NCBI GenBank assembly: GCA_005878385.1
Contig: VBMN01000073.1
Location: 1-51,074, forward strand
DNA: 51,074 bases
From: Methanobacteriota archaeon
GTDB lineage: Archaea > Thermoplasmatota > Thermoplasmata > RBG-16-68-12
Direction: 5' to 3'
The first letter of the stretch is position 1. The number at the start of each line of letters is the position of its first letter. The position numbers and the translations under genes were made by a program. Positions 1,222 through 36,559 of the stretch are shown here, piece by piece. Below the pieces are notes generated by a model that saw nothing but the letters and a program-made list of their open reading frames with translations, was not told the origin of the DNA and did not search any database.

Positions 1222-1233
1222 CTTCTCGACTCC

Positions 1234-1995
1234 TCAGCAGTACTCGTACCATCGAGGATCGGACATGCCTCCGACCAGGACGGTGCCGTCGACACGAAGC
1301 GGCACGACGGGAAGGGCGCGCTGCGTCGGCCCGTGCACGTGCGTGGCCCCGACGTACCTCACGCCGCTCCTCGGATGGACGTTGGTCGTGAGGAGAAGCG
1401 GATCATACTGGGACCCGTGGCAGATGCAGAAGATCGGATCTTGCCCGTACACGGAATAGGTAGGCGAGGGGACACGGTAGTCTCGGTACGGCTTCGTGTC
1501 CGTGATCACGTGCCAACCCGGATTGCAGCAAAGATGGGTGCAACGGTCGACCACGGTGACCATCCGAATCTGACGCACTGGATCGTCAAAGTAGAAGGAG
1601 AACCCTTTGGGGGGAGCGAGGTCCGTCAACACTTGGAACTCGGGAGCGTCGTAGGGGACTCGAATCACCAAGACCGGAAAGCCGGTCCCTGGGACCCATT
1701 GTCCGTGGAGGAACAGCCCGCGCCACACCCCGGTGGCGCCCTGCCACTCCTGGAAATCGCTCACTTCGACCGCATGCCCCTGTCGCCCGTTCCACCAGGC
1801 CTCGGTGGGCCATTTCGTATAGTAGATCTCCTCTCGGAGATCGCCATCGAATCTCGCGGGTGGAGGCAGGAGCTGGCCCGAAACGGTTCCGCCGAGCGCA
1901 ATGACCGAGCCGACCGCTCCGGTCGCGATGGCGAGCTTCGCCCACTCTCGCCGAGTCCAACCACGACCGTTGGGCTCTTCGCCTTCCCATGGCAT
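1234..1995 (-). CDS. Rieske-type [2Fe-2S] protein with Tat signal, paralogue 2
   Basis: Track ORF 1234..2058. TRREWAKLAIATGAVGS signal, CTHLCCNPGWH and CICHGSQYD boxes. It aligns over its whole length with paralogue 1 and shares the C-terminal DPRWYxYC. I chose the ATG at 1995 because GGAGGG (2007-2002) sits 6 nt upstream; 2001 and 2058 are alternatives. Confidence 0.8.
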   Translation of the reverse strand: MPWEGEEPNGRGWTRREWAKLAIATGAVGSVIALGGTVSGQLLPPPARFDGDLREEIYYTKWPTEAWWNGRQGHAVEVSDFQEWQGATGVWRGLFLHGQWVPGTGFPVLVIRVPYDAPEFQVLTDLAPPKGFSFYFDDPVRQIRMVTVVDRCTHLCCNPGWHVITDTKPYRDYRVPSPTYSVYGQDPIFCICHGSQYDPLLLTTNVHPRSGVRYVGATHVHGPTQRALPVVPLRVDGTVLVGGMSDPRWYEYC

Positions 1996-2125
1996 GAGCA
2001 TCCCTCCGCGTCCGAGCCTGACGCGCCGCGAGGCCACTCTCCGGTGTGACTCCTTCAATGTGTCGTACGTATCGTCCTTGTCGCGTCGTGGTCTCGAGGG
2101 TCCGTTTGACCGATCCTACGCGATT

Positions 2126-2941
2126 CTATGGAGCCCAACCCCGCTGCCCGACGAACCGCCAGAGCATGAGGATGACCCCGAGCCCTTGGAGAATCGAGAG
2201 GAACAGGAGCAAGGCCCAGATGCGGCCCACCGTCGGGCGGCGCAGGAACGCCGCGTAGAAGATCACCTGTAAGCCGAGGAACGGCCAGAGTTCCGCCATG
2301 CCGTCGTATCCGGGCCCGTCGAAGGGGAACCACCGTTGGCTCCATCCGATCGCGAGGGCCGCGACGGACAGGACCTGCAGGAAGAAACCGAACAGGAGCG
2401 TGCGCGTCACACCGAAGCGGACGGCGAACGTCCGAATGCGGAAGGCCCGGTCGGCCGCATAGTCGGAGGCCGTCGTCGGTGCGTAGAGAGCTCCCAGGAA
2501 GAGCGCGATCGTCCCGATGAACCACCAAGCGAACGAGGCTAGCAAGAGCGTCTCTCGCTCGATGAGCCCCTGACCAATCAGCTCCTCCACGACCTGGACG
2601 TACTTCTTCCGGGGATTGACCCGGTCCGTCGTCTCCATGTCGCTGTAGACGTTCAGCAGGAGGGTGAAGGTCCCGAGCAGCGGGCCGATTACGATGATGC
2701 CGAGGACCACCCGCAGGTCGTCGATGAACAGATGCCGCCCGCCGGGAGGCTGGGCCAGGACCCACCCGATGTACAGAGGTGCAATGGCCACGATCCAGAA
2801 CTTCACGCCTCCGAGGCTCACGATGAGCTCGGTGAGGTCGCTCGGTGATACGCGGAGCTCCTTGGTGATCCGGATTCCGCTCTCCGCGGCCACGGACTGA
2901 TATCTGCTGCCCAAGATAATAATGACGCCTCCGAGGATCAC
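2126..2941 (-). CDS. UbiA-family aromatic prenyltransferase (integral membrane)
   Basis: 271 aa and multi-TM. Asp-rich motifs NVYSDMETTD and SDYAADRAF. The GTG start overlaps the MFS stop by 4 nt (GTGA). Confidence 0.65.
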   Translation of the reverse strand: MILGGVIIILGSRYQSVAAESGIRITKELRVSPSDLTELIVSLGGVKFWIVAIAPLYIGWVLAQPPGGRHLFIDDLRVVLGIIVIGPLLGTFTLLLNVYSDMETTDRVNPRKKYVQVVEELIGQGLIERETLLLASFAWWFIGTIALFLGALYAPTTASDYAADRAFRIRTFAVRFGVTRTLLFGFFLQVLSVAALAIGWSQRWFPFDGPGYDGMAELWPFLGLQVIFYAAFLRRPTVGRIWALLLFLSILQGLGVILMLWRFVGQRGWAP

Positions 2942-4098
2942 TTCGCGAGGGCCTCGAGCAGGATGACTCCTCCGACGAGGAGGAACAACGCGTACACGTC
3001 CCCGCCCAGGGACAGGATGGCCAGACCCGCGACGATCGCGACGGCGCGACCGAGGTTGATCGAGAATTCCCGCGACGCGGTCGCCCTCGGGATCGAATCC
3101 TCCATCCGATCAATCAAGATCGTATAGATGAACGAAGGAGCGATCGCGGCCGTCAGGGAGAGCCAACCGATCGCGAAGGCGAAGGTTCCCAGATCGCGGA
3201 CGGCGAACGCCAGAAGGCATGCCGGCACCGAGAGGATCGGCCCCAGGAACAAGAAAGGGCCGCGGGTTTTCGTCCGATCCGAAATGCGACCCAAGAGCAC
3301 GGCGGTCACCCCGGCCGCCAAGGAGAACAGGGAGAAGAGAAGGCCCAACTCGAAGGAGTCCGTCGTGAACCGGAACGAGCCCAGGGGCGTCGCGATCGTC
3401 AGGAGCCCATCCACGCCTCCCTGTCCCGCCAACGCCAAGACGGTCCGTGAATTCGCCGCTGGGAGGTCGATCGAGAATGCGAACGAAATCGCCGGATCGA
3501 CGAGAAGACGGACAAGGACCAGATTTCCGAGCACGATGGCTCCGCCCAGGGAAAAGAGGGTCCAGTACCCCGCGAGGTCCGCGATGTAGCCCCCGACCAC
3601 CGGTGCGACGACGCCGGTCGTGGTGAAGGCCGCCGTCAGGCCCGCGAGGCGGCCCGCCCGATTCGTCCGGTGCGTCTCCCGGACCAAGAGGCAATTCATC
3701 GGCAGCCAGAACGCCGGGACGTACGTGCCGAAGCAGACGCCCGCGACGAAGACGGCCGCGAGCGGGGGAAGGACGACGAACGAAAAATGGCCGACCGCCA
3801 CGGAAAGAATTCCGAGCGTCATGCTCCTCGCAGCCCGTATCGGTCGACCGCTCGAGAGAACGAGGACGACGAGAGCCGCGACGCCGAACGCGACCAGCCA
3901 CACGAGGACACCGACGTTGAAGGCAAGCGCCTGTGGCGCGCTCACCAAGTAGACGAGCCAGAAGCTGCCCGCCATTTGATTCCCGAAGAATTGGACCGAG
4001 ATGACGATGAGCAACGATCGATAGACCAAGCCGGAGGTCGGCGGAACGGCGGGCTGGACCACGGCCATTCGATTCGCGCGACACAACAGCGCATACAT
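2938..4098 (-). CDS. MFS-type transporter
   Basis: 386 aa, about 12 hydrophobic segments, with an MFS-like loop motif (RETHRTNRAGRLAG). An alternative start is M11 at 4068. Confidence 0.6.
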   Translation of the reverse strand: MYALLCRANRMAVVQPAVPPTSGLVYRSLLIVISVQFFGNQMAGSFWLVYLVSAPQALAFNVGVLVWLVAFGVAALVVLVLSSGRPIRAARSMTLGILSVAVGHFSFVVLPPLAAVFVAGVCFGTYVPAFWLPMNCLLVRETHRTNRAGRLAGLTAAFTTTGVVAPVVGGYIADLAGYWTLFSLGGAIVLGNLVLVRLLVDPAISFAFSIDLPAANSRTVLALAGQGGVDGLLTIATPLGSFRFTTDSFELGLLFSLFSLAAGVTAVLLGRISDRTKTRGPFLFLGPILSVPACLLAFAVRDLGTFAFAIGWLSLTAAIAPSFIYTILIDRMEDSIPRATASREFSINLGRAVAIVAGLAILSLGGDVYALFLLVGGVILLEALAK

Positions 4099-4255: not shown

Positions 4256-5200
4256 ATGCGAGTGCGAACCTACGACGAGATCCATCCGGACGATAGTTTC
4301 CGGCTCAGCTTCCTGGCCTTCGGCGAAGCATGGGACGAAGCCAAGGTCCGCCGGGTCCGATCGAGCGACAGGAGGTATCTCGAGGAGTTCGCCCTCTATG
4401 CGGAGGAAAGAGGTCGCGTTCTCGCGCAGGTCGTGCCGTTGCGCTTCCGGGTGCGGTTGCGAAGCGGTGTCGAGGAGGTGGGCGGTCTTGCGGGGGTCTG
4501 CTCGCATCCGGCCGTTTGGGGACGGGGGTACGCACGCCGACTCATGGACGCCGCGCATGATCGCTTCCGCGCGCTGGACCTCCGAATCTCGACCTTAACC
4601 ACGAGTCGCAACATCCGAGGCTATGGCGTTTATGCGAAAATGGGTTACGTGGACCTCGCGCCGTTTCGCGCGGCGGTGCGACGCTCGTCTCGGAGGAGAG
4701 CGCCCTACGGATATCGTCTCCGTACCGCGACAAAGACGGATGTGCCAAGAATGCACGACCTCTACCGAAAGCACACCCGAAACATGTTAGGATGGACGGA
4801 GCGACCCGCGGAACTCCTCCAGTGGGTCCTGCGGGAGAACCGAGACTATCTTTCGAAATACCGAGTCCTACTCCGTCAGGGCAAGGTGGTTGGATATCTG
4901 CGTACTCGCCCGGACGAGGGCATGACCATGGAAGAGGTCGTCGTACCGGGGCCGCGCGACTTCCGGGCTGCGGTGGCGCTCATGGAATCACGGCATCGGC
5001 GCGGAATGGTCACAGTAAACTGGATTACGGCGGCGGACGACGTCACCCGATTCCGGAGCCTCGGATACTCGGTGGACGGTCCAATCCCTGATGCGACCAT
5101 GGCGTTGTCTCTGACAAAGGAGGTTCGGGCGACCGACCTTCGCAGGCTCTTCGGCGGAACGTCTGGGCGCTTTGTCCAGTATCCAACGGACGATTTCTGA
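4256..5200 (+). CDS. GNAT-family N-acetyltransferase (two-domain, Eis-like size)
   Basis: Track ORF 4193..5200 begins inside the tRNA. The first ATG after the tRNA is at 4256. Acetyl-CoA binding-like motif VWGRGYARRLMDAA. Confidence 0.7.
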   Translation: MRVRTYDEIHPDDSFRLSFLAFGEAWDEAKVRRVRSSDRRYLEEFALYAEERGRVLAQVVPLRFRVRLRSGVEEVGGLAGVCSHPAVWGRGYARRLMDAAHDRFRALDLRISTLTTSRNIRGYGVYAKMGYVDLAPFRAAVRRSSRRRAPYGYRLRTATKTDVPRMHDLYRKHTRNMLGWTERPAELLQWVLRENRDYLSKYRVLLRQGKVVGYLRTRPDEGMTMEEVVVPGPRDFRAAVALMESRHRRGMVTVNWITAADDVTRFRSLGYSVDGPIPDATMALSLTKEVRATDLRRLFGGTSGRFVQYPTDDF

Positions 5201-5330
5201 ATTCCCATCGTCTTCGGCGAACCGCGAGAACTGTCGAATAATCCGACGGGTCAATTGCCCCCACACTCCGCGACATGAGAACCAAACGGAACGATTAAAG
5301 AAGGGGAATCGGACATGGAGTCGATCGTCG

Positions 5331-6158
5331 ATGGGCGCGGATTCGATGAAGTCGAAGATGGTCCTGCTCGGGGACGGCGGCGTCGGCAAGACCTCCCTGA
5401 TTCGAAGATTCGTGGTCGATCAGTACTCGGACGATTACATCACGACGATCGGCACAAAGGTGTCGAAGCGGAGCCTCAACGTGGGACATCCTGCAGCGGA
5501 AGTCGAGATGTCGATGCAGATCTGGGACGTCCTGGGTCAGAAGGGCTACAGCGGCGTCCAAGAGACGGCCATGAAGGGCGCGCAAGGCGTCCTGATGGTC
5601 TACGACGCCACGAGCGACGAGAGCCGGCGCAGCCTCGAAGACTACTGGATGCCCGCGGTGTGGCGGCTCGCGGGCCGAGTCCCGATGGTGATCGCCGGGA
5701 ACAAATCCGACCTCGTCGCGGACCGCGTCTGGGCGGAAGACTACCTCTATTTCCTGGCCCAGAAGTACAACTGCCCCGGAATCCTCACAAGCGCCCGGAC
5801 CGGGGACCGCGTTGAGCACTCATTCAAAGCTCTCGGCGAGCAGATCCTCGCCGCTGCCGGACATCCAATCCGACGAATCGCCCTCGTCACGCCGCCGCAA
5901 GAGCCGATTGACCGATTCATCCGCGTCACGGACAAGATCATGACCGACTTCTGCTACCAAATGGGCGGAGTGGAAACCGGCATGCCAATCGTAAAGCGAC
6001 AGCTGGGCCTCGCGGGCCTCGACGTGCGGGCCCCGAGCGACCAAACGATTCGAGACCTCATCGAGCGACTTGCGGTGGTCGAACGGGATTTCAAGGGTCC
6101 CGATGAGATCCGAGAAAATCGCGAGCGTCGGTTGGCGTGGCTGGGCGGGAGTGACTAA
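5331..6158 (+). CDS. Ras/Rab-like small GTPase with ~120-aa C-terminal extension
   Basis: G1 LLGDGGVGKTS, G2 ITTIG, G3 WDVLGQ, G4 GNKSD, G5 TSAR. The start is the ATG at 5331; in-frame ATGs at 5346 and 5358 are also possible. The track ORF starts at 5172. Confidence 0.8.
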   Translation: MGADSMKSKMVLLGDGGVGKTSLIRRFVVDQYSDDYITTIGTKVSKRSLNVGHPAAEVEMSMQIWDVLGQKGYSGVQETAMKGAQGVLMVYDATSDESRRSLEDYWMPAVWRLAGRVPMVIAGNKSDLVADRVWAEDYLYFLAQKYNCPGILTSARTGDRVEHSFKALGEQILAAAGHPIRRIALVTPPQEPIDRFIRVTDKIMTDFCYQMGGVETGMPIVKRQLGLAGLDVRAPSDQTIRDLIERLAVVERDFKGPDEIRENRERRLAWLGGSD

Positions 6159-6175: not shown

Positions 6176-6757
6176 TCAAACCTTCAAGGGGAAGTTCTTC
6201 TCTCCCGCGCGGATCGGTACGGTCAGCCAATTCTCCCGCGGCGGGAACGGGCACACGTAATCGTCGCTGTACGCGCAGTACGGATTGTATGCGAGGTTGA
6301 AGTCGAGCTCGTACTCGTCCGCCGGCTGTTCCTCGATGTCGAGGTAGCGGGCAGCTCCGTATGTGTCCTTGCCCGAGGTCGCATCTCGGAAGGGTATGAA
6401 TAGACTGCGGTCTTCGTGGTGATGACCGGGTGGCGGAACAGCTTTGAACACAGCGAGGCGTTGCTTCGTCCCCCCAATCTCGAATTCGAAGACACCGACA
6501 CGGAGCATGTCCCGAGGGATCCCTTTGGAGGTCGCGAGCACGACGCGCTCCGGGTTCGGATCTCGAACGAGGCGGGCGCGGATCCGATAATTCGGATCGA
6601 CGGGGAAATAGGACAGACCGGAGAACTCGGGTCGCAACCGATGCGGAATCGGGGACTCATGGTCTTCTTTGAAAAAATGGTCCTTCTCTCGACGCATCGC
6701 CTCGAGGTCCTTGACGTAGGTCTCGTCCGATTGTCGAGCCATTCGAAACTCGACCAC
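6176..6757 (-). CDS. DUF1684 domain protein
   Basis: 193 aa with blocks typical of the family: SPIPHRLRPEFSGLSYFPVDPNYR, FRDATSG.DTYGAARYL, AYNPYCAYSDDYVCPFPPRENWL. Confidence 0.7.
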   Translation of the reverse strand: MVEFRMARQSDETYVKDLEAMRREKDHFFKEDHESPIPHRLRPEFSGLSYFPVDPNYRIRARLVRDPNPERVVLATSKGIPRDMLRVGVFEFEIGGTKQRLAVFKAVPPPGHHHEDRSLFIPFRDATSGKDTYGAARYLDIEEQPADEYELDFNLAYNPYCAYSDDYVCPFPPRENWLTVPIRAGEKNFPLKV

Positions 6758-6781: not shown

Positions 6782-7099
6782 CTACATCGAGTACAGACTC
6801 TGCTTCGCCTTCGAGAGCAGGGCTTTCTCGTCATCGCCTAGGTGCGCAGGTGGAAGCTTGGCTTCCACGAGTCCGAGGATCTCAGTGGCGGCAGAAATCT
6901 TCTGCGCCTGGGTCGCTTGTTTGACGAGATCCGCTGCGAGACGGGCCTTGAGCTTCGACAGCCCGGCATCCTCTGGCGCAATCGCGAGCAATTCCTCGAT
7001 CAGTCTCAGCGACTCGTCGAAACGGCCGGTTTTCGCAAACGATTTGACCGCCCGTTCGAGCATCGCGAAGCGATGGACGGTCCCCGGGTCGAGGGGCAT
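6782..7099 (-). CDS. Hypothetical helical protein
   Basis: Track ORF 6782..7189 overlaps the upstream gene's stop. The internal ATG (M31) at 7099 removes the overlap. I recognised no motif; third-position GC is coding-like. Confidence 0.4.
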   Translation of the reverse strand: MPLDPGTVHRFAMLERAVKSFAKTGRFDESLRLIEELLAIAPEDAGLSKLKARLAADLVKQATQAQKISAATEILGLVEAKLPPAHLGDDEKALLSKAKQSLYSM

Positions 7100-7149: not shown

Positions 7150-8604
7150 TCAGTATCGAGGCATTTCGGGTTCGACTTTCTCCGCCCACTCGTCGATTCC
7201 GCCGACGAGGTTCCTCACCTTACGGAAGCCCAGCTCCCGGAGGAAGTTCGTGATGCGGGCGGAGCGGACCCCGGTCTTGCAGTACACGACAATGTCGTCC
7301 GCCGTGTTGAGTTCGTTCACGCGACCCGGGACCTGTGCCACAGGCATCAGCACGGCCCGATCCAAATGGGCGATCTCCCACTCCATCGGCTCGCGGACGT
7401 CCAGGAGGACGATCTCCTGGCGTTGGTCGAGTCGATCTTTCAGCGCGTCGACCGTGATCTGAAGTTCTTCACCGACTTGCTCGGAAGGCCCGCGAAGGCC
7501 GCAAAACTCTTCGTAGTCGATCAATTCTTTGATGGTCGGATTCGAGCCGCAGATGGGACATTCCACGTTCTTGCGGAGTTTCAACTCGCGGAACTTCATC
7601 TTCAAGGCGTCGAAGACGAGCAACCGGCCAATCAGCGTGTCCTCTTTCCCGAGAAGGAGTTTGAGCGTCTCGATCGCTTGGATCGAACCGATAATTCCCG
7701 GGAGGACGCCCAGCACGCCGCCCTCGGCACAGGACGGTACGAGTCCGGGCGGTGGCGGCTCGGAATACAGGCAGCGGTAACAAGGTCCTTTCCGCGCGTC
7801 GAAGACGCTCGCCTGTCCCTCGAAACGGAAGATCGAGCCATACACGTTCGGCTTATGGAGCAACACGGAGGCGTCGTTGACGAGATACCGCGTCGGGAAA
7901 TTGTCCGTCCCATCGATGACGACGTCATAGTCCTTCAGGATGTCCAGAGCGTTCTCCGAGGTGAGCCGCGTCTCGTATGTCTGCACGTCGACGTTCGGAT
8001 TGATCTGGGCGACCCGTTCTTTCGCCACCTCGAGTTTCTTCCGCCCCACGTCCTTCGTGCTGTACAGCACCTGCCGCTGCAGGTTCGATTCATCAATCAC
8101 ATCGAAGTCGACGATGCCGAGGCGGCCGACACCCGCCGCACTCAGATATTGGGTCAACGGAACGCCGAGACCGCCGGCGCCGATGATTAGGGCGGACGAC
8201 TGCTTCAGTTTTAGCTGGCCCGCCATCCCGACTTCGGGCAAAATGAGGTGACGGGAGTACCGCTTGATTTCGCCCGGTGACAAGACGTCCTTCCGTTTCG
8301 CCGCGAGACGATCCATCAGGGAGAAGGAACCTCCCGCGATGCTGGGGACGATCGAGATCGTATCGCCCCCTTTCAGAGCCGTTCCGTCCCGTTCCAAATA
8401 GCGGATGTCCTCCTCGTTCACGTAGACGTTCACAAAGTTTCGGAGGCGTCCATCCTCAGCGAAAAGATGGCGACGGAGCTGATCGTGACGTTCGACGAGA
8501 TCCGAGAGTGCTTCGCGGACGCTCTCCGCTTCGACCTCCACCGCATCTCGATTCCCGGCATATTGTCGAAGGGGAGTCGGGATGATGATCCGGACGCTCG
8601 CCAT
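7150..8604 (-). CDS. Fusion protein: ThiS/MoaD-like ubiquitin-like domain (ends in GG) + MoeB/ThiF-type E1 adenylyltransferase + rhodanese (MoeZ/UbaA-like)
   Basis: Residues 1-92 end in ...DTISIVPSIAGG (GG codons 8334-8329). The E1 follows: RYSRHLILPEVG, GAGGLG, CxxC pairs GPCYRC and ECPICG, PSCAEGGVLG. C-terminal rhodanese with YCKTGVRS. Confidence 0.85.
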   Translation of the reverse strand: MASVRIIIPTPLRQYAGNRDAVEVEAESVREALSDLVERHDQLRRHLFAEDGRLRNFVNVYVNEEDIRYLERDGTALKGGDTISIVPSIAGGSFSLMDRLAAKRKDVLSPGEIKRYSRHLILPEVGMAGQLKLKQSSALIIGAGGLGVPLTQYLSAAGVGRLGIVDFDVIDESNLQRQVLYSTKDVGRKKLEVAKERVAQINPNVDVQTYETRLTSENALDILKDYDVVIDGTDNFPTRYLVNDASVLLHKPNVYGSIFRFEGQASVFDARKGPCYRCLYSEPPPPGLVPSCAEGGVLGVLPGIIGSIQAIETLKLLLGKEDTLIGRLLVFDALKMKFRELKLRKNVECPICGSNPTIKELIDYEEFCGLRGPSEQVGEELQITVDALKDRLDQRQEIVLLDVREPMEWEIAHLDRAVLMPVAQVPGRVNELNTADDIVVYCKTGVRSARITNFLRELGFRKVRNLVGGIDEWAEKVEPEMPRY

Positions 8605-8624
8605 GTTCCTTTTGCCAATACGGT

Positions 8625-8636
8625 GTTATACTTAAG
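8625..8636 (-). promoter_or_regulatory. TATA-like box for the Ubl-E1 gene (near-leaderless)
   Basis: The minus strand reads CTTAAGTATAAC, centred ~26 nt upstream of the ATG at 8604. Confidence 0.4.
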
Positions 8637-8707
8637 GTTCGTCCCGCCGAAATCCCTCGATTAATCACTGCAATCTCAAAGGTAGCGTTCGGGGGGACGG
8701 GGCGCTT

Positions 8708-8737
8708 GAAAACTCAGCGTTGAACGAGCTCAACGCT
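8708..8737 (-). terminator. Hairpin plus U-tract after the JAMM gene (candidate terminator or processing site)
   Basis: Perfect 8-bp stem AGCGTTGA (8716-8723) / TCAACGCT (8730-8737) with a 6-nt loop. It overlaps the JAMM stop codon and is followed on the minus strand by GAGTTTTC. Confidence 0.3.
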
Positions 8738-9191
8738 TCGTTGCCTTGCGAGGCTTCCTGGAATCCACCTTCGCCGAGATTCGACGGACTTCTTCCTTCT
8801 CGAACCTTTTCGTCGGCTCATCGAACCGCCACGCTGCAATCTCTCGCGGATCGCGATCCACGATGCTCAGGATGAGGTACAGATACCACGGGGTGGCGCG
8901 GGATCGGTCGAATTCCGATGGCACCGCGGGATGATTGGGATGGCTGTGATAGATGCCGACCAAGTCCAGGCCTCTCTTCCGCGCCTCGTCGTCCGCGCGA
9001 AGTAGCTCCAGTGGATCGACCATGTACCGGCGGGCTCGGTCTTCCACGGCGACGTTCTTCGCTCGATGGGCCTCGATCACGCCCGTCCGTTCCCCAATGT
9101 GGCCAAGCAGGAACCCGCAACACTCCTCCGGGAATGCGCCGCGTGCATGGTCTTCGATGACCTTGGTTGCGGCCTCCCGAAGCTCGATCAC
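8730..9191 (-). CDS. JAMM/MPN+ metalloprotease (Mec+/HvJAMM-like)
   Basis: 153 aa with EECCGFLLG ... HSHPNHPAVPSEFD (the E / HxH / S / D JAMM signature). It overlaps the upstream cysteine synthase by 4 nt. Confidence 0.85.
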   Translation of the reverse strand: MIELREAATKVIEDHARGAFPEECCGFLLGHIGERTGVIEAHRAKNVAVEDRARRYMVDPLELLRADDEARKRGLDLVGIYHSHPNHPAVPSEFDRSRATPWYLYLILSIVDRDPREIAAWRFDEPTKRFEKEEVRRISAKVDSRKPRKATKR

Positions 9192-10159
9192 GATTCGCCC
9201 TCCCAGTAGCGCTCCCCCAGGTAGCGCTCGCCTCTGTCCGGGAAGATCATGACGACGTGTCCCTCCCCAATCCGCTCGGACAACCGAAGTGCGGCATCGA
9301 ACGCCGCGCCGCTCGAGGTGCCGACCAAGAGCCCCTCCTCCCGGGCGAGGCGACGCACGGCGACCTGCGCGTCCTCAGTCGCCACGGAGAGGATTTCGTC
9401 CGGAAGCTTCGAATCCCAGATGCCCGGGACGTGGGAGCTTCCGAGGTGCTTCACCCCCTCGATGCCATGGAACGGGCCGTCTGGTTGGACCGCGACGAGA
9501 CGGATCCTGGGATTCTTCGTCTTGAGATATCGGCCGGCACCGACGAAGGTGCCCGTGGTCCCTAAACAGGCGACTAGGTGTGTGATCTCTTGGCGAGTCT
9601 GCTGCCAGATCTCTGGACCGGTCGACTCGTAGTGCGCACGCCAATTTGCCTCGTTGTTGTATTGATCCAGATACCAGTACTTCTGCGGGTCGGAGAGGGC
9701 GAGGTCCTTCGCTACCTTCTGGGCTCCGTCGGTCCCGTCTTCCGCCGGCGTGAAGACCAGCTCGGCCCCGTAGGCCTTCAACATCCTCCGCCGATCCAAG
9801 GAGATGTTGGCGGGAACACAAAGTGTCACCGGGTACCCTTCCGCCGCGGCAAGCATCGCGATCGCGATTCCGGTATTGCCGGAGGTCGCGTCGAGGAGGG
9901 TACGCTCTTTCGTCAGGCCGGACTTCTGCGCTGCGCGAATCATCCCGAGGGCGGCACGGTCCTTCACGCTGCCGCCCGGGTTGTGCCACTCCGCCTTCGC
10001 AAATAACCGTACACCGGGCGCGACGTGAGCGGCCATCCGGTCCAGCCGCAACAAGGGCGTGCGTCCAATCAGGTCGGCGACGCGGGCGGCCTCGGGCGCC
10101 TTTTCGTCGGCGGGCATGGGTCCGCGGGCCTCAGGTCCGAACGGCCTTCGAGTCTCCAA
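9188..10159 (-). CDS. PLP-dependent cysteine synthase (CysM/CysK family)
   Basis: IGRTPLLRL, GGSVKDR (PLP lysine), TSGNTGIA, GTSSGA. The alternative ATG (M15) at 10117 would remove the 29-nt overlap with the upstream sufU-like gene. Confidence 0.85.
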   Translation of the reverse strand: METRRPFGPEARGPMPADEKAPEAARVADLIGRTPLLRLDRMAAHVAPGVRLFAKAEWHNPGGSVKDRAALGMIRAAQKSGLTKERTLLDATSGNTGIAIAMLAAAEGYPVTLCVPANISLDRRRMLKAYGAELVFTPAEDGTDGAQKVAKDLALSDPQKYWYLDQYNNEANWRAHYESTGPEIWQQTRQEITHLVACLGTTGTFVGAGRYLKTKNPRIRLVAVQPDGPFHGIEGVKHLGSSHVPGIWDSKLPDEILSVATEDAQVAVRRLAREEGLLVGTSSGAAFDAALRLSERIGEGHVVMIFPDRGERYLGERYWEGES

Positions 10160-10523
10160 GGGCGAGTCTTAGCACGTGGAGGGGCAAGAGAGCACACTTC
10201 AGGCGGACGACGCTCAAGGGAATCCCGAGTTTCTTCAGGAGCGCGTCCCGATCCAACGCCTCGATATCCGCCATGGATGACCCCTTCAACATCGTCGTGA
10301 GGATCGAGGCACTCGCCTGGCTGATCGCGCAACCCTGACCTTCGAACCGGACCTCCGAGGCGTGTCGGGAACCGTCGATGTTCAGATGAAGGATGACTTC
10401 GTCCCCACAAAGCGGGTTCGAGTCCCGGGCGTTCAAGGTCGCGTCCGGAAGCGGTCCCTTGTTCCTCGGATGTCTGTAGTGGTCCAGGATCTGCTCCTGA
10501 TACAGGTCGTACGAAGCAGACAT
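10131..10523 (-). CDS. sufU: SufU/IscU-type Fe-S scaffold or sulfur acceptor, copy 2 (short form)
   Basis: 130 aa with YQEQILDHYRHPRN and three conserved Cys (NPLCGD, GQGCAIS, LKCALL). Its start overlaps the sufS stop by 1 nt (TGATG). Confidence 0.8.
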   Translation of the reverse strand: MSASYDLYQEQILDHYRHPRNKGPLPDATLNARDSNPLCGDEVILHLNIDGSRHASEVRFEGQGCAISQASASILTTMLKGSSMADIEALDRDALLKKLGIPLSVVRLKCALLPLHVLRLALGDSKAVRT

Positions 10524-11788
10524 CAGGCGAAGACCTCTTGGACCCGCTTGATTCCGGCGACGAGCGCGTCGACGTCCTCAAGGTCGTTGTAGACATAGAA
10601 GGAAGCCCGCGCGGTTGCGGGCAAGTCGAACCGTTCCATCAGCGGCTGCGCACAGTGGTGCCCGGAACGGACGCAGATGCCTTCCACGTCCAGGATCGAT
10701 GCCACGTCGTGCGGATGGGCGTTGTCGATCGTGAATGCCAGGACCCCGGCTTTCTTCTTCACATCCTTCGGACCATACGTGTGGACGCCGTCGAGCCGCG
10801 CGAACTTCTCGAGCGCGTATTGGGTGACCTCCATCTCGTGGGCGCGGACCGCGTCCATGCCCAGCTTGGTGAGATAGTCGACCGCGACTCCGAGGCCGAT
10901 CGCGCCCGCGATGTTCGGGGTACCGCCTTCGAAGCGGTAGGGCACGTCGTTCCACGAGGCCCGGCCGAGATGGACCTCCCGGATCATCTCGCCTCCTCCG
11001 AGGAGGGGCTCCGTCGCGTCGAGGGCCTCCGGCTTCCCGTACAACACACCGATGCCCGTGGGACCGAGCATCTTGTGTCCGCTGAACGCGAGGAAGTCCG
11101 CATCGAGGTCTTGCACGTCAATCGACATGTGCGGTGCAGCTTGGGCGGCGTCGACGACGCAGACGGCTCCGACCTCGTGGGCCCGCTTTACAATATCCTT
11201 CACCGGGTTGATCGTGCCAAGGACGTTCGAACACAGCGTCACCGTGACAATCTTCGTCCGCTTCGTGAGGAGCTCGTCGTACTGTTCCATCCGCAGCGTC
11301 CCGTCGTCGTTCACATCCACGTACTTCAGGACCGCGCCTTTGTGATCTTTCACAAAGTGCCAGGGAACGTGGTTCGAATGATGCTCCATCACCGTGCCGA
11401 CGATCTCGTCTCCACTCTGAAGTTTCCCCTTCAGGCCGTACCCGTAGGCGACGACATTGAGGGATTCTGTCGTGGACTTCGTGAACACGATCTGGTTCGG
11501 AGACTTGGCACGGATGAACCCGGCGATCTTTTCGCGCGCTCCCTCGTACTCGCGGGTGGCCTCCTCTCCGAGTTCGTAGATGGCCCGATGGACGTTCGCG
11601 TTGTAGCGGGAATAGTAATCCGACGTCGCGTCAATGACCTGTTTTGGCTTCTGCGAAGTCGCGGCGCTGTCGAGGTAGATGAGGCGGCGGTCCCGGACTT
11701 TCCGCTGCAAGATGGGGAAATCGGCCTTGATGGCCGGGACGTTCAACAGCACCTTGGCAGGCTTTGCCATCCGGTTCCCTCGTACCAT
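10523..11788 (-). CDS. sufS: Cysteine desulfurase SufS (class V aminotransferase)
   Basis: 421 aa with DFPIL, YLDSAATSQKP, FSGHKMLGPTG (PLP lysine) and RSGHHCAQP (active-site Cys loop). An alternative ATG lies at 11770. Confidence 0.9.
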   Translation of the reverse strand: MVRGNRMAKPAKVLLNVPAIKADFPILQRKVRDRRLIYLDSAATSQKPKQVIDATSDYYSRYNANVHRAIYELGEEATREYEGAREKIAGFIRAKSPNQIVFTKSTTESLNVVAYGYGLKGKLQSGDEIVGTVMEHHSNHVPWHFVKDHKGAVLKYVDVNDDGTLRMEQYDELLTKRTKIVTVTLCSNVLGTINPVKDIVKRAHEVGAVCVVDAAQAAPHMSIDVQDLDADFLAFSGHKMLGPTGIGVLYGKPEALDATEPLLGGGEMIREVHLGRASWNDVPYRFEGGTPNIAGAIGLGVAVDYLTKLGMDAVRAHEMEVTQYALEKFARLDGVHTYGPKDVKKKAGVLAFTIDNAHPHDVASILDVEGICVRSGHHCAQPLMERFDLPATARASFYVYNDLEDVDALVAGIKRVQEVFA

Positions 11789-11845: not shown

Positions 11846-13114
11846 TCATCCGATGCCGCCACTGAGCTCCAATTCGAGCAGTCGATCCACTTCCACCGCA
11901 TATTCGACCGGGATGCGACGCGTCGCTTCCGAGGCGATTCCCAGGACCACCATGCGGATCGCTTCGTCCGCTGGGACGCCCCGCGACGACATGTAGAAAA
12001 GCATCTCTTCGCCGACCTTGCGGACCTTGCCCTCTTGCCCAATCTCCGCGTCCGCCTCGTCCACTTCGATCGACGGATTCGTTTCCGCGCGGGATTCCGC
12101 GTCGAGCATGAGCGACGACCAGGTGACCGACGACACCGCCTCCGTCGCGCCGGTGGCCACCCGGACGCCCGATCGGAGGGTGGCCCGGCCCCCTTTCTTA
12201 ACAATCCCGTGGTTCACGATGCGTGACCGCGTGCGAGGCGCCAGGTGGACCATCTCGGCCCCGACGTCCTCGTGTTGGCCTCGGCCCGCGAAGGCGACGC
12301 CGATGAAATCCGCGTTGGCTCCGGGACCGACGAGGTTCGCCCGTGGAACTTTCCATGTGCGCCTCGAACCCAAGTTCACGTCGACCCATTCGAGGGACGC
12401 ACCGTCGTGGACCTGCGCACGCTTCGTCACGAGGTTGTCCACTTTCTTGGAGAAGTTCTGGAGGGCGATGTAACGGACGCGGGAGCCTGGCATCGCGACG
12501 ACCTCAATCGCCGAAAGGTGCAGTTCGTCCGCCGTATAGACCGGCGCGGTGCAACCCTCGATGTAGGTCACCTCCGCCCCGCGATCGGCGACGATCACAT
12601 TGCGTTCGAACGGTTCGACTTTCGTATAGTCTGCACGAATCTCCGCCTGGAGCGGGATCCCGACCGAGACGCCGGGCGGCACGTAGAGGAACGAACCTTC
12701 GGTCCAGAGGGCGGCGTTCAGGGCCGCGATTGGGTCGTCGTCCGGCGGGATGACCGAGGCCAGATACGTTCGCAGGGAATCCGGAATCCGCGCGAGGGCG
12801 GTTGGCAACCCGTAGAATCGGATGCCGCGGGACTCGAGATCGGTGCGGACCGCGCGATAGGCCTCCTCGGACTCTTCGAGGGCCCCGAGGCCGGGCTGAA
12901 CCGTGGAATCCCGAGGTGCGTTTGCTTCTGCGGGGGGTCCATCGGACGAAACGATCGCCCCGAAATCGATCTCTCGCAGGAAGGCGGCCCACGCGGGAAC
13001 ACCGTCGGACCGAACGAGGTCGAGTCCTCGCAGGCGCTGACGCAACATCCAGTTTGGCTCGCCGCGTCCCGCCGAGAGCTGGCGAACCAGGTCCTCGGTC
13101 GGACCGAGGTTCAT
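11846..13114 (-). CDS. Divergent SufB/SufD-family protein (second SufB-like copy)
   Basis: 422 aa, collinear with the SufB beta-helix core. It keeps YIEGCTAP and the C-terminal ...PVEYAVEVDRLLELELSGGIG. The N-terminal third is unlike the canonical SufB at 15836-17287. Confidence 0.7.
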   Translation of the reverse strand: MNLGPTEDLVRQLSAGRGEPNWMLRQRLRGLDLVRSDGVPAWAAFLREIDFGAIVSSDGPPAEANAPRDSTVQPGLGALEESEEAYRAVRTDLESRGIRFYGLPTALARIPDSLRTYLASVIPPDDDPIAALNAALWTEGSFLYVPPGVSVGIPLQAEIRADYTKVEPFERNVIVADRGAEVTYIEGCTAPVYTADELHLSAIEVVAMPGSRVRYIALQNFSKKVDNLVTKRAQVHDGASLEWVDVNLGSRRTWKVPRANLVGPGANADFIGVAFAGRGQHEDVGAEMVHLAPRTRSRIVNHGIVKKGGRATLRSGVRVATGATEAVSSVTWSSLMLDAESRAETNPSIEVDEADAEIGQEGKVRKVGEEMLFYMSSRGVPADEAIRMVVLGIASEATRRIPVEYAVEVDRLLELELSGGIG

Positions 13115-13680: not shown

Positions 13681-15021
13681 TCATAAGGTCTCTCCGACCT
13701 CGGCCCCTTTCGGCAACCGCGAGAGGATCAGTTGGTCGAGCTTGATTCGAATCGGGGCCACCTTCACCTGATTCACGACGTCCGAGGCGAACGCGTAGGT
13801 GAGGATGTGACGAGCGTTTTCCTCGTCGATCCCGCGGGAGCGAAGGTAGAACACCGCGTTCTCGTCCAGTTGACCGATCGTCGAGGCGTGACTGCACTTG
13901 ACGTCGTCCGCCAGGATCTCGAGACCCGGAGTGCTGTCGACGAAGGCCTCCTTCGATAGGAGGAGGTTCTTGTTCACCTGCCGCGCGACGGTCTTCTGGG
14001 CGTCCTTTCGGACGTAGATGTTCCCGTTGAACACCCCTCGGGACTTTCCGCCGAGGATGCCGCGGTACAGCTCGAGGCTCGTGCACGCAGGGGCTGCGTG
14101 GTCGATTCGCGTATAGTGATCCGATTGCTGTGCCCCGGAAGGCATGAACAGCCCGTTGAGGGCCACACTTCCTCCCTCGGCCCGGAAAATGGTGTGGACA
14201 TAGTTCCGGACGAGTGCTCCGCCGAAGGACATCGAGTGGCAGGTGACGGAGGAATTGCGGTCTTGGTCGACCGCCATCGTCGCGACGTGGAAGGCCGCCT
14301 CGGACTCGCGCTGGATCTTGTAATGCTCCAGGACGCAAGCCGGTCCGGCGACGATCTCCGTGACGGCGTTCGTGAAGGTTACCTCTGGGGCCCACCCCGC
14401 ATACGTCTCAATCACGGTGGCCTGGCTCCCCGCTCCGAGGCGAATCAGGTTGCGTGGATAGGCGACCGTGGGCCGGTCCCGGGACGTCGAGACGAAGACC
14501 AAATGGATCGGCTCGTCCACGACCGCATTCTTCGGGACGTCCACATAGGCACCGTCGATGAAGAAGGCCGTGTTCAACGCGACGAACGAATCCTCTTGGA
14601 AACGGGCGAACCGGGTGAGATCCTTTTCGAGGCTCCCGGGGTCCTGACGGAGGACCTCGGCGAGGGATGCGATCCGGACACCTTCCGGAAGCGGCCGGAG
14701 GTACGAAAGACGCGGTGCATACCGGCCGTTCACGAACACGAGTCGAGTCGTCTTCAAGATGCCGAATGCGAACGGTTCGAGCTTCTCTGCCACGACTCCG
14801 TCGGGCCCCCCGAGGATGGGGGGTTTGAACGGGACCCGAAGGAGCGGCGCGAGGTTCGTGAACTTCCATTCTTCGTGTCGTTGCGTGGGAAAGCCGAGGG
14901 CGTCGAACCGCTCGATCGCGGACCGGCGGATCCCGCGAAGCCACGACGGACCGGAGCGATCCGTCTCGGCGGACGCAAATTCCGCGACATACGTCTGCTT
15001 GGCGTCGAGGGCCACCGCCAC
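13681..15021 (-). CDS. sufD: Fe-S cluster assembly protein SufD
   Basis: 446 aa. N-terminus ...RRSAIERFDALGFPTQRHEEWKFTNL, beta-helix core, C-terminus ENAVFYLRSRGIDEENARHILTYAF. Confidence 0.85.
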   Translation of the reverse strand: MAVALDAKQTYVAEFASAETDRSGPSWLRGIRRSAIERFDALGFPTQRHEEWKFTNLAPLLRVPFKPPILGGPDGVVAEKLEPFAFGILKTTRLVFVNGRYAPRLSYLRPLPEGVRIASLAEVLRQDPGSLEKDLTRFARFQEDSFVALNTAFFIDGAYVDVPKNAVVDEPIHLVFVSTSRDRPTVAYPRNLIRLGAGSQATVIETYAGWAPEVTFTNAVTEIVAGPACVLEHYKIQRESEAAFHVATMAVDQDRNSSVTCHSMSFGGALVRNYVHTIFRAEGGSVALNGLFMPSGAQQSDHYTRIDHAAPACTSLELYRGILGGKSRGVFNGNIYVRKDAQKTVARQVNKNLLLSKEAFVDSTPGLEILADDVKCSHASTIGQLDENAVFYLRSRGIDEENARHILTYAFASDVVNQVKVAPIRIKLDQLILSRLPKGAEVGETL

Positions 15022-15035
15022 GATCTCACCGGGCC

Positions 15036-15806
15036 TCAGGCGCGAGCCGGCTGCGGCCTCGGCGCCTCCTCGACGATCCAGCCGTAGCCGTGCTTCTCCA
15101 GGTTCCGAGCCAAGTCCGCGTCGCCGCTCTTCACGATCCGGCCGTCCACGAGGACGTGGACGAACTCAGGGATCACATAGTCCAGGAGGCGTTGGTAGTG
15201 GGTCACGACGAGCATCGAGCGCTTCGGGCTTCGCATCGTGTTGACTCCGTTGGCGACGAGGCGCAAGGCATCGATGTCAAGGCCGGAGTCCGTCTCGTCG
15301 AGGATGCAGAACTTCGGCTCTAGGACCGCCATCTGGAACACTTCGTTCTTTTTCTTCTCGCCTCCGGAGAAACCTTCGTTCAAACCGCGCTTCATGAAGG
15401 TCTCGTCAAGGCCGAGCAGCTTCGCCTTGTCTTGGACAAGGCTCATGAAGTCCATCGCATCGATCTCCTCGAGCCCGCGGTATTTTCGAATCGCGTTCAG
15501 GGCCGCCTTCAGGAAATAGGCGTTGCTGACGCCCGGGATCTCGACCGGATATTGGAACGCCATGAAGACGCCTTCGCGGGCGCGGTCCTCCGGCTTCATC
15601 GCGAGAAGATCCTTGCCTTCGAACCGGGCCGTCCCTCCCGTGACCTCGTACGTCAGGCGGCCGGCGAGGACCTGAGCGAGCGTGGTCTTGCCGCTCCCGT
15701 TCGGGCCCATGACCGCGTGGACCTCCCCGGGTCCGATCGAGAGATCGATTCCTTTCAGGATCTCCTTTCCCGCCACCTTCACGTGCAGATTCTTGATCTC
15801 GAGCAT
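15036..15806 (-). CDS. sufC: Fe-S cluster assembly ATPase SufC
   Basis: The real start is MLEIKNLHV at 15806. Walker A GPNGSGKTT, signature FSGGEKKK, Walker B ILDETDSGLD. The rest of track ORF 15036..16685 is an out-of-frame overlap of sufB. Confidence 0.92.
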   Translation of the reverse strand: MLEIKNLHVKVAGKEILKGIDLSIGPGEVHAVMGPNGSGKTTLAQVLAGRLTYEVTGGTARFEGKDLLAMKPEDRAREGVFMAFQYPVEIPGVSNAYFLKAALNAIRKYRGLEEIDAMDFMSLVQDKAKLLGLDETFMKRGLNEGFSGGEKKKNEVFQMAVLEPKFCILDETDSGLDIDALRLVANGVNTMRSPKRSMLVVTHYQRLLDYVIPEFVHVLVDGRIVKSGDADLARNLEKHGYGWIVEEAPRPQPARA

Positions 15807-15835: not shown

Positions 15836-17287
15836 TCAGCCGACCGTTCCCTCGAGGTTCAGGCTCACACTGATCAGCTTCTGGGCTTCCACCGCGAACT
15901 CCATCGGGAGCTTCAGGAAGACCTGCTTGCAGAAGCCGTTCACAATCATGTTCGTGGCATCCTCCGGCGTGATGCCACGCGTCTGGCAATAGAAGAGTTG
16001 GTCCTCGCCGATCTTCGATGTCGACGCCTCGTGCTCCATCTGGGCCGTCGGCTCCTGGACCTGGATATCTGGGAACGTGAAGGCCGCGCACGTGGAGCCG
16101 ATCAGGAGCGAGTCGCACTGGGAGTAGTTCCGGGCGTTCGTGGCGCCTTTGTGGATTTGCACGCGGCCTCGATAGGTGTTCCGCCCGTAGCCCGCGGAGA
16201 TTCCCTTCGAGATGATCGTGCTCCGGGTGTTCTTCCCGATGTGCAGCATCTTCGTGCCCGTGTCGGCCTGCTGGTAGTTGTTCGCCAACGCGACGGAATA
16301 GAATTCGCCCACGGAGTTGTCCCCCTGCAGGATGCAACTCGGGTACTTCCAGGTGATCGAGGAACCCGTCTCGACCTGGGTCCAAGAGATCTTCGAGTTC
16401 ACGCCGAGGCACTTCCCCCGCTTCGTGACGAAGTTGTAGATCCCGCCCTTCCCCTGCTTGTCGCCAGGGTACCAGTTCTGAATCGTGGAATACTTGATCT
16501 CCGCATCGTCGAGGGCGATCAGTTCGACGACCGCGGCATGCAGCTGATTCGTGTCGCGGATCGGCGCCGTGCATCCCTCGAGATAGCTCACGTACGCGCC
16601 CGGGTCTGCAATGATCAGCGTTCGCTCGAACTGCCCGGTGTCCTGCGCGTTGATCCGGAAATACGTGGACAACTCCATCGGGCACCGCACCCCCGGCGGG
16701 ACGTAGGCGAACGAGCCATCACTGAAGACCGCGCTGTTCAGCGCGGCGAAGAAATTGTCGTTGAATGGCACGACGGAGCCGAGGTACTTTCGGACGAGGT
16801 CGGGGTGTTCGAGGACCGCCTCGGAGAAGGAACAGAAGATGATGCCCAGTTCCGCGAGCTTGTCCTTGAACGTCGTCGCGACCGAGACGCTGTCCAGCAC
16901 CGCATCCACCGCGACACCGGAGAGGCGTTCCTGTTCCTGTAGCGGGATGCCAAGCTTCGCGTAGAGAGACCGGATCTCGGGATCGACGTCCTCGAGGCTC
17001 TTCACTTCCTTCTTCGGCCTCGGAGCGGCGTAGTAGATGATGTCCTGGTAGTTGATCGGGGGATAGCGGACGTTGGACCACGTGGGCTCCTTCATCGTGA
17101 GCCAGTGGCGATAGGCCCGGAGCCTCCACTCGGTCATCCATTCCGGCTCCTTCTTTTTGTGAGAGATGAGCCGGACGACGTCCTCGCTGAGCCCCTTCGG
17201 AATCGTGTCCTCATCGAAGTCGGCGACGAAACCGTATTTGTACTCCTGCTTCGCCATCTGCTCTTGGAGTACGCTCTTCGAGACCAT
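15836..17287 (-). CDS. sufB: Fe-S cluster assembly scaffold SufB
   Basis: [65 protein letters not shown]. The ATG at 17287 is preceded by AAGGAGGTG (GGAGG at 17300-17296). Confidence 0.93.
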
Positions 17288-17323
17288 GCCACACACCTCC
17301 TTTTATGGGGAGGGAATGAGACA

Positions 17324-20415: not shown

Positions 20416-20464
20416 ATTTCTGACCTCCAGACATCCATTGCCGCCGAGGGACTTTACCTTTGTC

Positions 20465-34364: not shown

Positions 34365-34459
34365 GGGCCTCGCCCGTGTGCGTGTCAAGGTCCCACGAGG
34401 CTAATACCTTACTCCCTCTCTCGGGCGACGCGACCCGTTCGAACGAGCCCGAGGTTCTC

Positions 34460-35743: not shown

Positions 35744-35824
35744 CCATGCCTGTGGGCCATATTAAATGCTCACGGGAAGCCACTCGCGAACCCGTGTCTC
35801 AATCGGCCAGATCGATCCGAGATC

Positions 35825-36499: not shown

Positions 36500-36559
36500 G
36501 AACCTTCTCTGCGTCGTTGACAAACGCTTATCCCGGCGAAGGCCTCATCGCGCTGTGGG

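Follow-up and report, generated by a model that had tools for sequence, protein, structure and literature searches.

A 51,074-nucleotide (nt) stretch of DNA from a Methanobacteriota archaeon (Thermoplasmata; RBG-16-68-12), contig VBMN01000073.1 of assembly GCA_005878385.1, encodes a module in which a ubiquitin-like (Ubl) sulfur carrier forms the N-terminal part of the same polypeptide as its E1-rhodanese activator, beside a JAMM/MPN+ metalloprotease and a CysM-like, pyridoxal phosphate (PLP)-dependent cysteine synthase. We refer to the whole stretch as the window and to the 484-residue Ubl-E1-rhodanese protein as the fusion. We are highly confident of the identity of the module and of the reality of the fusion. 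Our interpretation, which we consider probable, is that the module is the Thermoplasmata version of the bacterial-type pathway that makes cysteine through a protein thiocarboxylate, and that its carrier is made as part of a pro-protein that the JAMM enzyme cuts. That the fusion is a precursor cut after the Gly-Gly (GG) at the end of its carrier domain appears to be the most likely reading, given that this GG is kept among relatives at 40 to 91% identity, that the linker following it is variable and predicted to be disordered, and that a JAMM domain is linked to the fusion in eight of nine divergent lineages.

A CysO-type carrier fused to its E1-rhodanese

The original prediction read the open reading frame (ORF) at 7150-8604 on the minus strand as a ThiS/MoaD-like segment followed by a MoeB/ThiF-type E1 and a rhodanese. 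Every motif it listed is present in the translation (VPSIAGG, with GG codons at 8334-8329; GAGGLG; GPCYRC; ECPICG; PSCAEGGVLG; and YCKTGVRS), and Pfam assigns the same three domains. The ThiS profile (PF02597) matches residues 6-92 over its full length (1-76/76, E 7.8e-14), and therefore its last column falls on Gly92. The closest sequences in the Protein Data Bank (PDB) are the CysO proteins of A. orientalis (4n6e_B, 5e-15) and M. tuberculosis (3dwg_C, 3e-13), both aligned end to end. An AlphaFold model of the Ubl domain alone has a predicted local distance difference test score (pLDDT) of 92.6, and Foldseek again ranks CysO 4n6e_B first (template modeling (TM) score 0.88/0.91, root-mean-square deviation (rmsd) 1.5 Å), with 3dwg_C at TM 0.86 and SAMP1 as the next-best structural match after CysO. 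Thus, the N-terminal domain is a beta-grasp domain by both its end-to-end ThiS match and its superposition on CysO (TM 0.86-0.91), and the analogy drawn at the outset to the CysO/CysM/Mec+/MoeZ pathway of M. tuberculosis is sound, with the Ubl nearest to CysO in sequence as well as in fold.

The remainder of the fusion resembles an intact activating enzyme. Its E1 domain superposes on MoeB (1jw9_B; Foldseek TMt 0.95, rmsd 1.7) and also on ThiF, and it carries the Arg-finger motif RYSRH, the P-loop GAGGLG, Asp234, the loop cysteine Cys292, and two zinc-binding CxxC pairs (275/278 and 349/352). In an alignment of 70 sequences, Cys292, Asp234, and the rhodanese Cys442 are invariant, Cys275, Cys278, and Cys349 are nearly so, and the P-loop glycines and Arg115/Arg118 (the MoeB Arg-finger RYxR) are invariant or nearly invariant. 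From these residues the E1 looks fully competent. MoeB and MoeZ models in NCBIfam cover fusion residues 106-484; the MoeB model PRK08762 scores above its curated cut-off (454.8 versus 449), while the equivalog models for MoeZ (480 versus 647) and UbaA (338.6 versus 450) and the SAMP1 model (53.6 versus 60) all fall below theirs. Public annotation gives these fusion proteins simply as "MoeB," which hides the carrier domain, so surveys that count free ThiS, MoaD, or CysO genes will undercount carriers.

The two other members of the module are likewise equipped with their catalytic residues. In the translated JAMM protein the metalloprotease motif is intact (E22...H82-x-H84-x7-S92-x2-D95; EECCG and HSHPNHPAVPSEFD); its best PDB match is 2kcq_A (E 3e-26, aligned), and it scores below the cut-off of the desampylase equivalog model (94.1 versus 130). 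For the PALP-family protein the top NCBIfam model is CysM (TIGR01138, E 3e-105), again below the cut-off (351.8 versus 394.2), and the CysK equivalog cut-off is likewise missed. The SVKDR motif with the PLP lysine is present, and the predicted pairing of an EECCG-type JAMM gene with an SVKDR-type cysteine synthase gene upstream of the fusion, overlapping by 4 nt (9188-9191), was confirmed. Translation of the CysM-like protein probably starts at the ATG at 10117 rather than at the TTG at 10159; its orthologue in a relative, the 788-kb Thermoplasmata contig L002, is 309 aa long.

We then turn to the junction between carrier and E1. The AlphaFold2 model of the full-length fusion has a mean pLDDT of 90.3, and residues 89-104, comprising SIAGG and the start of the linker, form the only segment of at least three residues with pLDDT below 50, which predicts a flexible, exposed junction. 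A linker after the GG had been foreseen, with its length put at about 15 aa; the linker is there, and 22 aa separate the GG from RYSRH, the first motif of the E1. The NCBIfam MoeB/MoeZ profiles begin to align at residues 106-108, which correspond to profile positions 11-13. These offsets place the canonical MoeZ/E1 start at about residue 96-97, and the window protein has a methionine, Met97, there, approximately four residues past the GG. In two other fusions, P0162 and P0187, a methionine follows the GG immediately. Together, Met97 at the canonical MoeZ start and the methionines of P0162 and P0187 fit an origin of the fusion by loss of the cysO stop codon, with an adjacent cysO-moeZ gene pair as the putative ancestral state. 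A Shine-Dalgarno (SD)-like GGAGGT overlaps the GG codons 12 nt upstream of Met97 in the window; it is missing in the 84%-identical orthologue in L002, where the GG codons read GGC GGA. We treat Met97 and the GGAGGT as a probable relic of the ancestral E1 start and not as a mechanism.

Spread of the fusion and its gene neighborhoods

Among the matches listed, at least 120 close clusters (78-91% identity) share the three-domain architecture, and the 120 listed are named "Thermoplasmata archaeon" or "Methanobacteriota archaeon." The same architecture in so many clusters, on many independent contigs, rules out an assembly or frameshift artefact. The junction reads AGG in 119 of these 120 clusters and PSIAGG in 115, and the alignment shows no variation in the GG or in the four residues preceding it. 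To look further afield, we searched 1.84 billion representatives clustered at 50% identity with HMMER and examined the best 150 matches, of which 19 bear the Ubl domain according to a hidden Markov model (HMM) of that domain. At 40-63% identity to the window, 18 of the 19 have [A/S]GG precisely where the Ubl domain ends; only the divergent P0141 does not. The linker from GG to RYxR varies from 10 to 33 aa and is unrelated in sequence between lineages while the GG is kept. The expectation that orthologues would retain GG at the boundary was thus borne out at both distances, and the pattern argues for selection on the junction GG. Ser or Ala directly follows the GG in 14 of 17 fusions (Ala in nine; Ser in the window clade). 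In the M. tuberculosis pathway a cysteine follows the GG of the Mec+ substrate, and the side chain of Ser or Ala is close in size to that cysteine.

The GG is also kept when the domains are arranged differently. P0129 has the order Ubl-rhodanese-E1; P0162 (Pseudomonas sp., 619 aa, L001:6001-7860) is a single chain of JAB, Ubl, E1, and rhodanese with GG at the end of the Ubl; and P0148 (Teredinibacter waterburyi, 634 aa, L012:5001-6905) joins JAB, Ubl, rhodanese, and E1 in one chain. Named bacterial members come from Gemmatimonadales, Evtepia (Clostridia), Pseudomonas, and Teredinibacter, and judged from these matches the fusion is widespread in bacteria, although the taxonomic picture is patchy, having been taken from cluster names and contig look-ups. 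The nearest relative found outside Thermoplasmata belongs to a cluster with a Gemmatimonadales member (63% identity overall, 73% in the E1 core), which suggests that the archaeal module came from bacteria; we conclude that it was probably acquired in this way. In a crude neighbor-joining tree of the E1 core, built on p-distances, the fusions fall into 13 groups interspersed with non-fusions, some of which have odd N-termini and may be mis-called genes. For more than one fusion event, we take only the differing domain orders as solid evidence. The nearest non-fused E1-rhodanese (P0123) lies in a neighborhood of JAB, an unknown 289-aa protein, and the E1-rhodanese with no Ubl; a cysO gene sought in this gene context was not found, which is uninformative on the fusion event.

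We inspected the gene context of nine fusion lineages with at most 63% identity to the window. A JAMM domain is adjacent or fused in eight of them, as a gene directly upstream in six and within the same polypeptide in two. Six of the nine lineages have a CysM-like PALP gene next to the fusion, and in one of these it comes after an Rrf2-family regulator. P0187 and P0162 have a neighborhood in common (GntR, EamA, JAB, Ubl-E1-rhodanese, PALP, a hexapeptide-repeat protein, and an AlaX-like protein), in which JAB is a separate gene in P0187 and fused in P0162. One related fusion adjoins a polyketide synthase (PKS). P0148 has as neighbors a gene for a lanthipeptide-dehydratase C-terminal domain, ABC/MacB-type transporter genes, and LuxR/LuxI genes, a context that hints at a role in a thio-natural product.

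Two lineages have the JAMM gene without a cysteine synthase nearby. In P0128 (L006:1389-4223), JAB is followed by the Ubl-E1-rhodanese fusion and then by ThiG. In P0133 (L009:377-3281; L010:1418-6644; includes Evtepia sp.), JAB and the fusion are followed by a gene for an SrpI-like protein, which we take to be a family 2 encapsulin shell protein, and upstream of them in L010 lie divergently oriented genes for a class-V aminotransferase (cysteine desulfurase-like) and a PP-loop ATPase. With no cysteine synthase beside it, the JAMM enzyme in P0128 and P0133 cannot serve hydrolysis of a CysO-cysteine adduct. Classical thiamine and molybdenum cofactor operons lack JAB (Iyer et al., PMC1779556). 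Thus, the JAB that travels with the fusion in these lineages is most simply a processing enzyme. As observations in their own right, P0128 looks like a thiamine-type use of the fused carrier, and P0133 presents a possible link of a thiocarboxylate carrier to an encapsulin/desulfurase system.

Proposed processing after the GG and competing explanations

E1 adenylation, in the chemistry of MoeB, ThiF, and Uba4, requires a free carboxylate on the carrier. Thus, the full-length protein as encoded cannot charge its own Ubl, whose GG at residues 91-92 is followed by 392 more residues of the same chain. In the scheme that we favor, the 484-aa pro-protein would be made with a chemically inert carrier, because Gly92 has no free carboxylate. 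The JAMM enzyme encoded upstream would cut the exposed, disordered junction between Gly92 and Ser93 and so separate a 92-aa CysO, its GG end now free, from an E1-rhodanese of canonical length. The E1 would then adenylate Gly92, a persulfide on the rhodanese Cys442 (with sulfur from sulfide or from the neighboring SufS) would turn the adenylate into CysO-COSH, and CysM would add the thiocarboxylate to a PLP-aminoacrylate derived from O-phosphoserine or O-acetylserine. Following an S-to-N acyl shift, the same JAMM enzyme would hydrolyze CysO-GG-Cys to cysteine and recycled CysO. The steps from adenylation to cysteine release are modeled on the M. tuberculosis pathway. The JAMM protein is therefore proposed as a candidate enzyme for both fusion processing and hydrolysis of the CysO-Cys adduct, and we hold JAMM-dependent cleavage of the fusion, taken alone, with moderate confidence.

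Comparison with known systems places the module between several precedents. With the M. tuberculosis CysO/CysM/Mec+/MoeZ pathway it shares a GG-ending beta-grasp carrier, an E1 with a C-terminal rhodanese, a JAMM enzyme, and a CysM-like PLP enzyme. It differs in that its carrier is the N-terminal domain of the E1, with no free C-terminus as translated; its host is an archaeon and its genes stand at the end of a suf operon; and its CysM is closer to that of E. coli, with the MoeZ and CysM equivalog cut-offs missed. The Haloferax volcanii SAMP/UbaA/HvJAMM1 system is similar in combining an archaeal beta-grasp Ubl, an E1, and a JAMM enzyme with dual potential for sulfur transfer and conjugation; to our knowledge, SAMP/UbaA sampylation needs no E2 or E3. 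In contrast to that system, the equivalog cut-offs for UbaA, SAMP1, and desampylase are not reached here, the fusion has a rhodanese domain that H. volcanii UbaA lacks, and its nearest relative found outside Thermoplasmata is the cluster containing Gemmatimonadales.

Linear Ubl fusions released by a JAMM enzyme have been described, QbsE/QbsD being one example. HvJAMM1 cuts a linear SAMP1-MoaE fusion exactly after the GG in vitro and in vivo, in a reaction that is GG-dependent and required for activity (PMC4443979), M. tuberculosis MoaX is active only once cleaved (PMC4326299), and DRJAMM cleaves the natural MoaD-MoaE fusion of D. radiodurans (PMC8832034). In each of these, as in the window, an N-terminal GG-ending carrier precedes a pathway partner in one chain and a JAMM enzyme is available. 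Unlike in these Ubl-MoaE fusions, the partner here is the activating E1-rhodanese rather than the sulfur-accepting MoaE, and cleavage is something that we infer.

Fusions of a Ubl to an adenylating domain have also been noted before. ThiS-ThiF fusions are listed in delta/epsilon-proteobacteria and Firmicutes (PMC1779556), and Ubl-E1-TBP fusions in Thaumarchaeota were mentioned in 2010 by Makarova and Koonin (PMC2948915); as here, the Ubl is N-terminal to a MoeB/ThiF-type domain. These fusions were only listed, without a described rhodanese, JAMM, or CysM context, and some of their operons carry a second, solo ThiS, whereas the present family is CysO-like, includes a rhodanese, keeps its GG, and is consistently linked to JAMM. 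A catalogue of 2006 already includes the operon type of ThiS/MoaD, E1-rhodanese, JAB, and cysteine synthase (Iyer, Burroughs, and Aravind; PMC1779556, Table 1 rows 4c and 4d), and the same authors proposed JAB-mediated release of fused ThiS/MoaD domains. The original description of the module as an unusual self-contained arrangement in an archaeon was thus overstated, both because the fusion is widespread in bacteria and because Ubl-E1 fusions and JAB release are already in the literature. The chemistry, the components, and the idea of processing are known or were already proposed, and current understanding is not overturned. What is new is modest: a defined CysO-type Ubl-E1-rhodanese fusion family with a conserved junction GG and a consistent JAMM link, its single-chain JAB-Ubl-E1-rhodanese members, and its occurrence in Thermoplasmata, where it closes a suf operon.

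Several observations weigh against the cysteine pathway with a JAMM-cut carrier. The CysM-like protein is nearer to E. coli CysM (2bhs, 4e-71) than to M. tuberculosis CysM (3dwg_A, 1e-55), and all equivalog models in NCBIfam apart from one MoeB model fall under their curated cut-offs. The proximity to E. coli CysM and the sub-cut-off equivalogs mean that orthology with the mycobacterial enzymes is not established. At the one position compared for substrate choice, the protein has Lys where E. coli CysM has Arg210, and its substrate may be either O-phosphoserine or O-acetylserine. A cysteine desulfurase beside a cysteine-making module would be a futile source of sulfur. JAMM genes accompany split CysO/E1-rhodanese operons too (PMC1779556, Table 1 rows 4a-4d), and therefore adjacency alone is no proof of a processing role; for one fusion, P0130, no JAMM was found on its contig, which spans only 3.7 kb. 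In the window itself, the fusion gene is set apart from the JAMM gene by 125 nt (8605-8729, from the JAMM stop codon to the fusion start codon) and by a possible promoter of its own: within this gap, 22-31 nt 5' of the fusion ATG, lies TTAAGTATAA (8626-8635, minus strand), which may be an archaeal TATA box, in which case the fusion gene may be transcribed with a very short leader. The corresponding gap is 51 nt in L002. Finally, the literature that we searched holds no experiment or structure showing cleavage of a Ubl-E1 fusion, nor any paper characterizing a natural one.

An alternative is that the Ubl is never released and acts in cis as a docking or regulatory domain, for example on the Ubl-binding face of the E1 or by recruiting CysM, while the E1-rhodanese serves free ThiS/MoaD carriers encoded elsewhere. 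In many archaea one E1 serves several Ubls, as UbaA does in H. volcanii, and in L002 a free ThiS-family gene (L002:18217-18516, minus strand; 99 aa) lies about 7 kb from the 84%-identical orthologue, adjoining an aldehyde:ferredoxin oxidoreductase gene. This free ThiS, however, ends in FVPIVGGG followed by a 14-aa extension (YSALAIRRSKKGVD), so it too would have to be trimmed at its C-terminus to become usable. This suggests that maturation of the JAMM type is general in the lineage of L002. We found no second carrier gene in the window, although a more distant Ubl, or a carrier gene beyond these 51 kb, may exist. When the six-frame translation of all 51 kb was searched with an HMM derived from the Ubl domains of 17 fusions, the fusion alone matched; phmmer, using the free ThiS of L002 as query on the six-frame ORFs, gave the same outcome, and tblastn gave only weak, chance-level matches. 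A docking domain, moreover, needs no GG, yet the GG is present in nearly all divergent representatives and close orthologues alike; the junction is predicted to be disordered rather than packed; and the JAMM gene accompanies the fusion even where the cysteine synthase is missing (P0128 and P0133). We consider permanent retention of the Ubl unlikely.

A second alternative accepts the module as built but assigns it a product other than free cysteine, namely Fe-S assembly, tRNA thiolation, a cofactor, a thio-amino acid made by the PALP enzyme, or Ubl conjugation as in sampylation. The position of the cluster at the end of a suf operon is consistent with this, as are the neighbors of related fusions (ThiG, an encapsulin with desulfurase and PP-loop ATPase nearby, a PKS, or a lanthipeptide dehydratase), the scores of the PALP enzyme below both the CysM and the CysK equivalog cut-offs, and the sub-threshold matches to the SAMP1 and UbaA models. 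Against it, the PALP protein scores best on CysM/CysK models, at about 350 bits, a CysM-like gene stands by the fusion in two-thirds of the divergent lineages, and the solved relatives closest to the Ubl are CysO proteins. We judge a different product to be distinctly improbable for the window's module.

It is less probable still, and in our view very unlikely, that carrier and E1 are separated without the neighboring JAMM enzyme, by a general protease acting on the linker, by internal initiation at Met97, or by Gly-Ser self-cleavage through an N-to-O acyl shift, even though the linker is predicted to be disordered, Met97 stands at the canonical MoeZ start with GGAGGT 12 nt upstream, and Ser follows the GG in the window clade. 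A non-specific protease would leave no exact GG end and would not account for the JAMM linkage or for the JAB-Ubl-E1 megafusions. Internal initiation would give free E1 and never free carrier, and we set it aside because the L002 orthologue (84% identical) does not retain the SD-like motif and the linkers of most other fusions contain no Met. Intein- or pyruvoyl-like self-cleavage, which needs Ser, Thr, or Cys after the GG, is ruled out as a general mechanism by the Ala found there in 9 of 17 fusions.

If the JAMM enzyme does cut the fusion as we favor, the module would offer a compact natural test system of three genes, or of one polypeptide in some bacteria, that could show a JAMM enzyme both maturing and recycling a Ubl sulfur carrier and reveal whether fusion controls stoichiometry or activity. 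The module also places a probable bacterial-type thiocarboxylate route to cysteine, attached to an Fe-S assembly operon, in uncultured Thermoplasmata, which bears on archaeal cysteine supply. More speculatively, and with considerable doubt, we postulate a zymogen-like licensing in which the uncut Ubl occupies or blocks its own E1 in cis, one JAMM cut activates carrier and E1 at a strict 1:1 ratio, and the same JAMM enzyme recycles the carrier. One protease would then gate both entry to and exit from the protein-thiocarboxylate cycle, an arrangement assembled repeatedly, up to single JAB-Ubl-E1-rhodanese chains, and a minimal prokaryotic analogue of eukaryotic ubiquitin-precursor processing combined with deubiquitinase recycling.

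Layout of the cluster and other features of the window

The window is archaeal; its genes include those for TFIIB, a PUA-domain TGT of the archaeosine type, an eRF1-family protein, and TrmB. The fusion module is the end of a long co-directional minus-strand cluster that begins with suf genes, as assigned with Pfam (Table 1). Gene order in L002 is the same as in the window cluster; the upstream order of SufS and SufU is shared with both L002 and another relative, L003, and in both the genes for the 105-aa helical protein and the DUF1684 protein also follow the fusion.

Table 1. Positions of the module, its protein domains, and the neighboring genes in the window (numbered on the forward strand).
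Feature	Position	Strand	Remarks
SufB	15836-17296	-	suf cluster
SufC	about 15036-15800	-	suf cluster
SufB/D protein	13681-15021	-	suf cluster
Second SufB/D protein	11846-13114	-	suf cluster
SufS cysteine desulfurase	10523-11788	-	Aminotran_5 E 2e-150; directly upstream of SufU
SufU/IscU-like scaffold	10131-10523	-	NifU_N E 8e-26; directly upstream of CysM-like gene
CysM-like PLP cysteine synthase ORF	9188-10159	-	PALP E 1.2e-72
JAMM/MPN+ metalloprotease, 153 aa	8730-9191	-	Prok-JAB E 6.4e-26
Ubl-E1-rhodanese fusion, 484 aa, ATG start	7150-8604	-	ThiS + ThiF + Rhodanese (Pfam)
Ubl (beta-grasp) domain, residues 1-92, ending VPSIAGG	8329-8604	-	Pfam ThiS
GG codons (Gly91-Gly92)	8329-8334	-	ORF translation
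Junction and linker, residues 93-115 (SFSLMDRLAAKRKDVLSPGEIKR)	8260-8328	-	between Ubl and E1
E1 adenylation domain, residues 116-350	7555-8259	-	Pfam ThiF PF00899 E 1.3e-83
Rhodanese domain, residues 384-475, active-site Cys442 (YCKTGVRS)	7180-7455	-	Pfam PF00581 E 7.6e-20
105-aa helical protein	6782-7099	-	only weak TPR matches; downstream of fusion
DUF1684 protein	6176-6757	-	downstream of 105-aa helical protein

The suf cluster of the window contains three SufB/D-family paralogues (11846-13114, 13681-15021, and 15836-17296), and the orthologous cluster of L002 has two NifU_N scaffold genes. The cysteine module is thus joined directly to an expanded Suf system. The ORF at 5172-6158 (plus strand), which lies immediately downstream of the DUF1684 gene but on the other strand, encodes a small GTPase domain of the Ras family with strong Pfam matches (Ras E 1.7e-33, Roc E 1.5e-24) and approximately 60 N-terminal residues that probably derive from an over-extended TTG start. 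Four further ORFs of 352-714 aa, at 925-2049 (plus), 2055-3113 (minus), 20273-21424 (plus), and 34376-36520 (plus), have no Pfam match at E <= 1e-4; in a window of 62% GC, some of these may be shadow ORFs antisense to true genes, and others may themselves be genes of unknown function.

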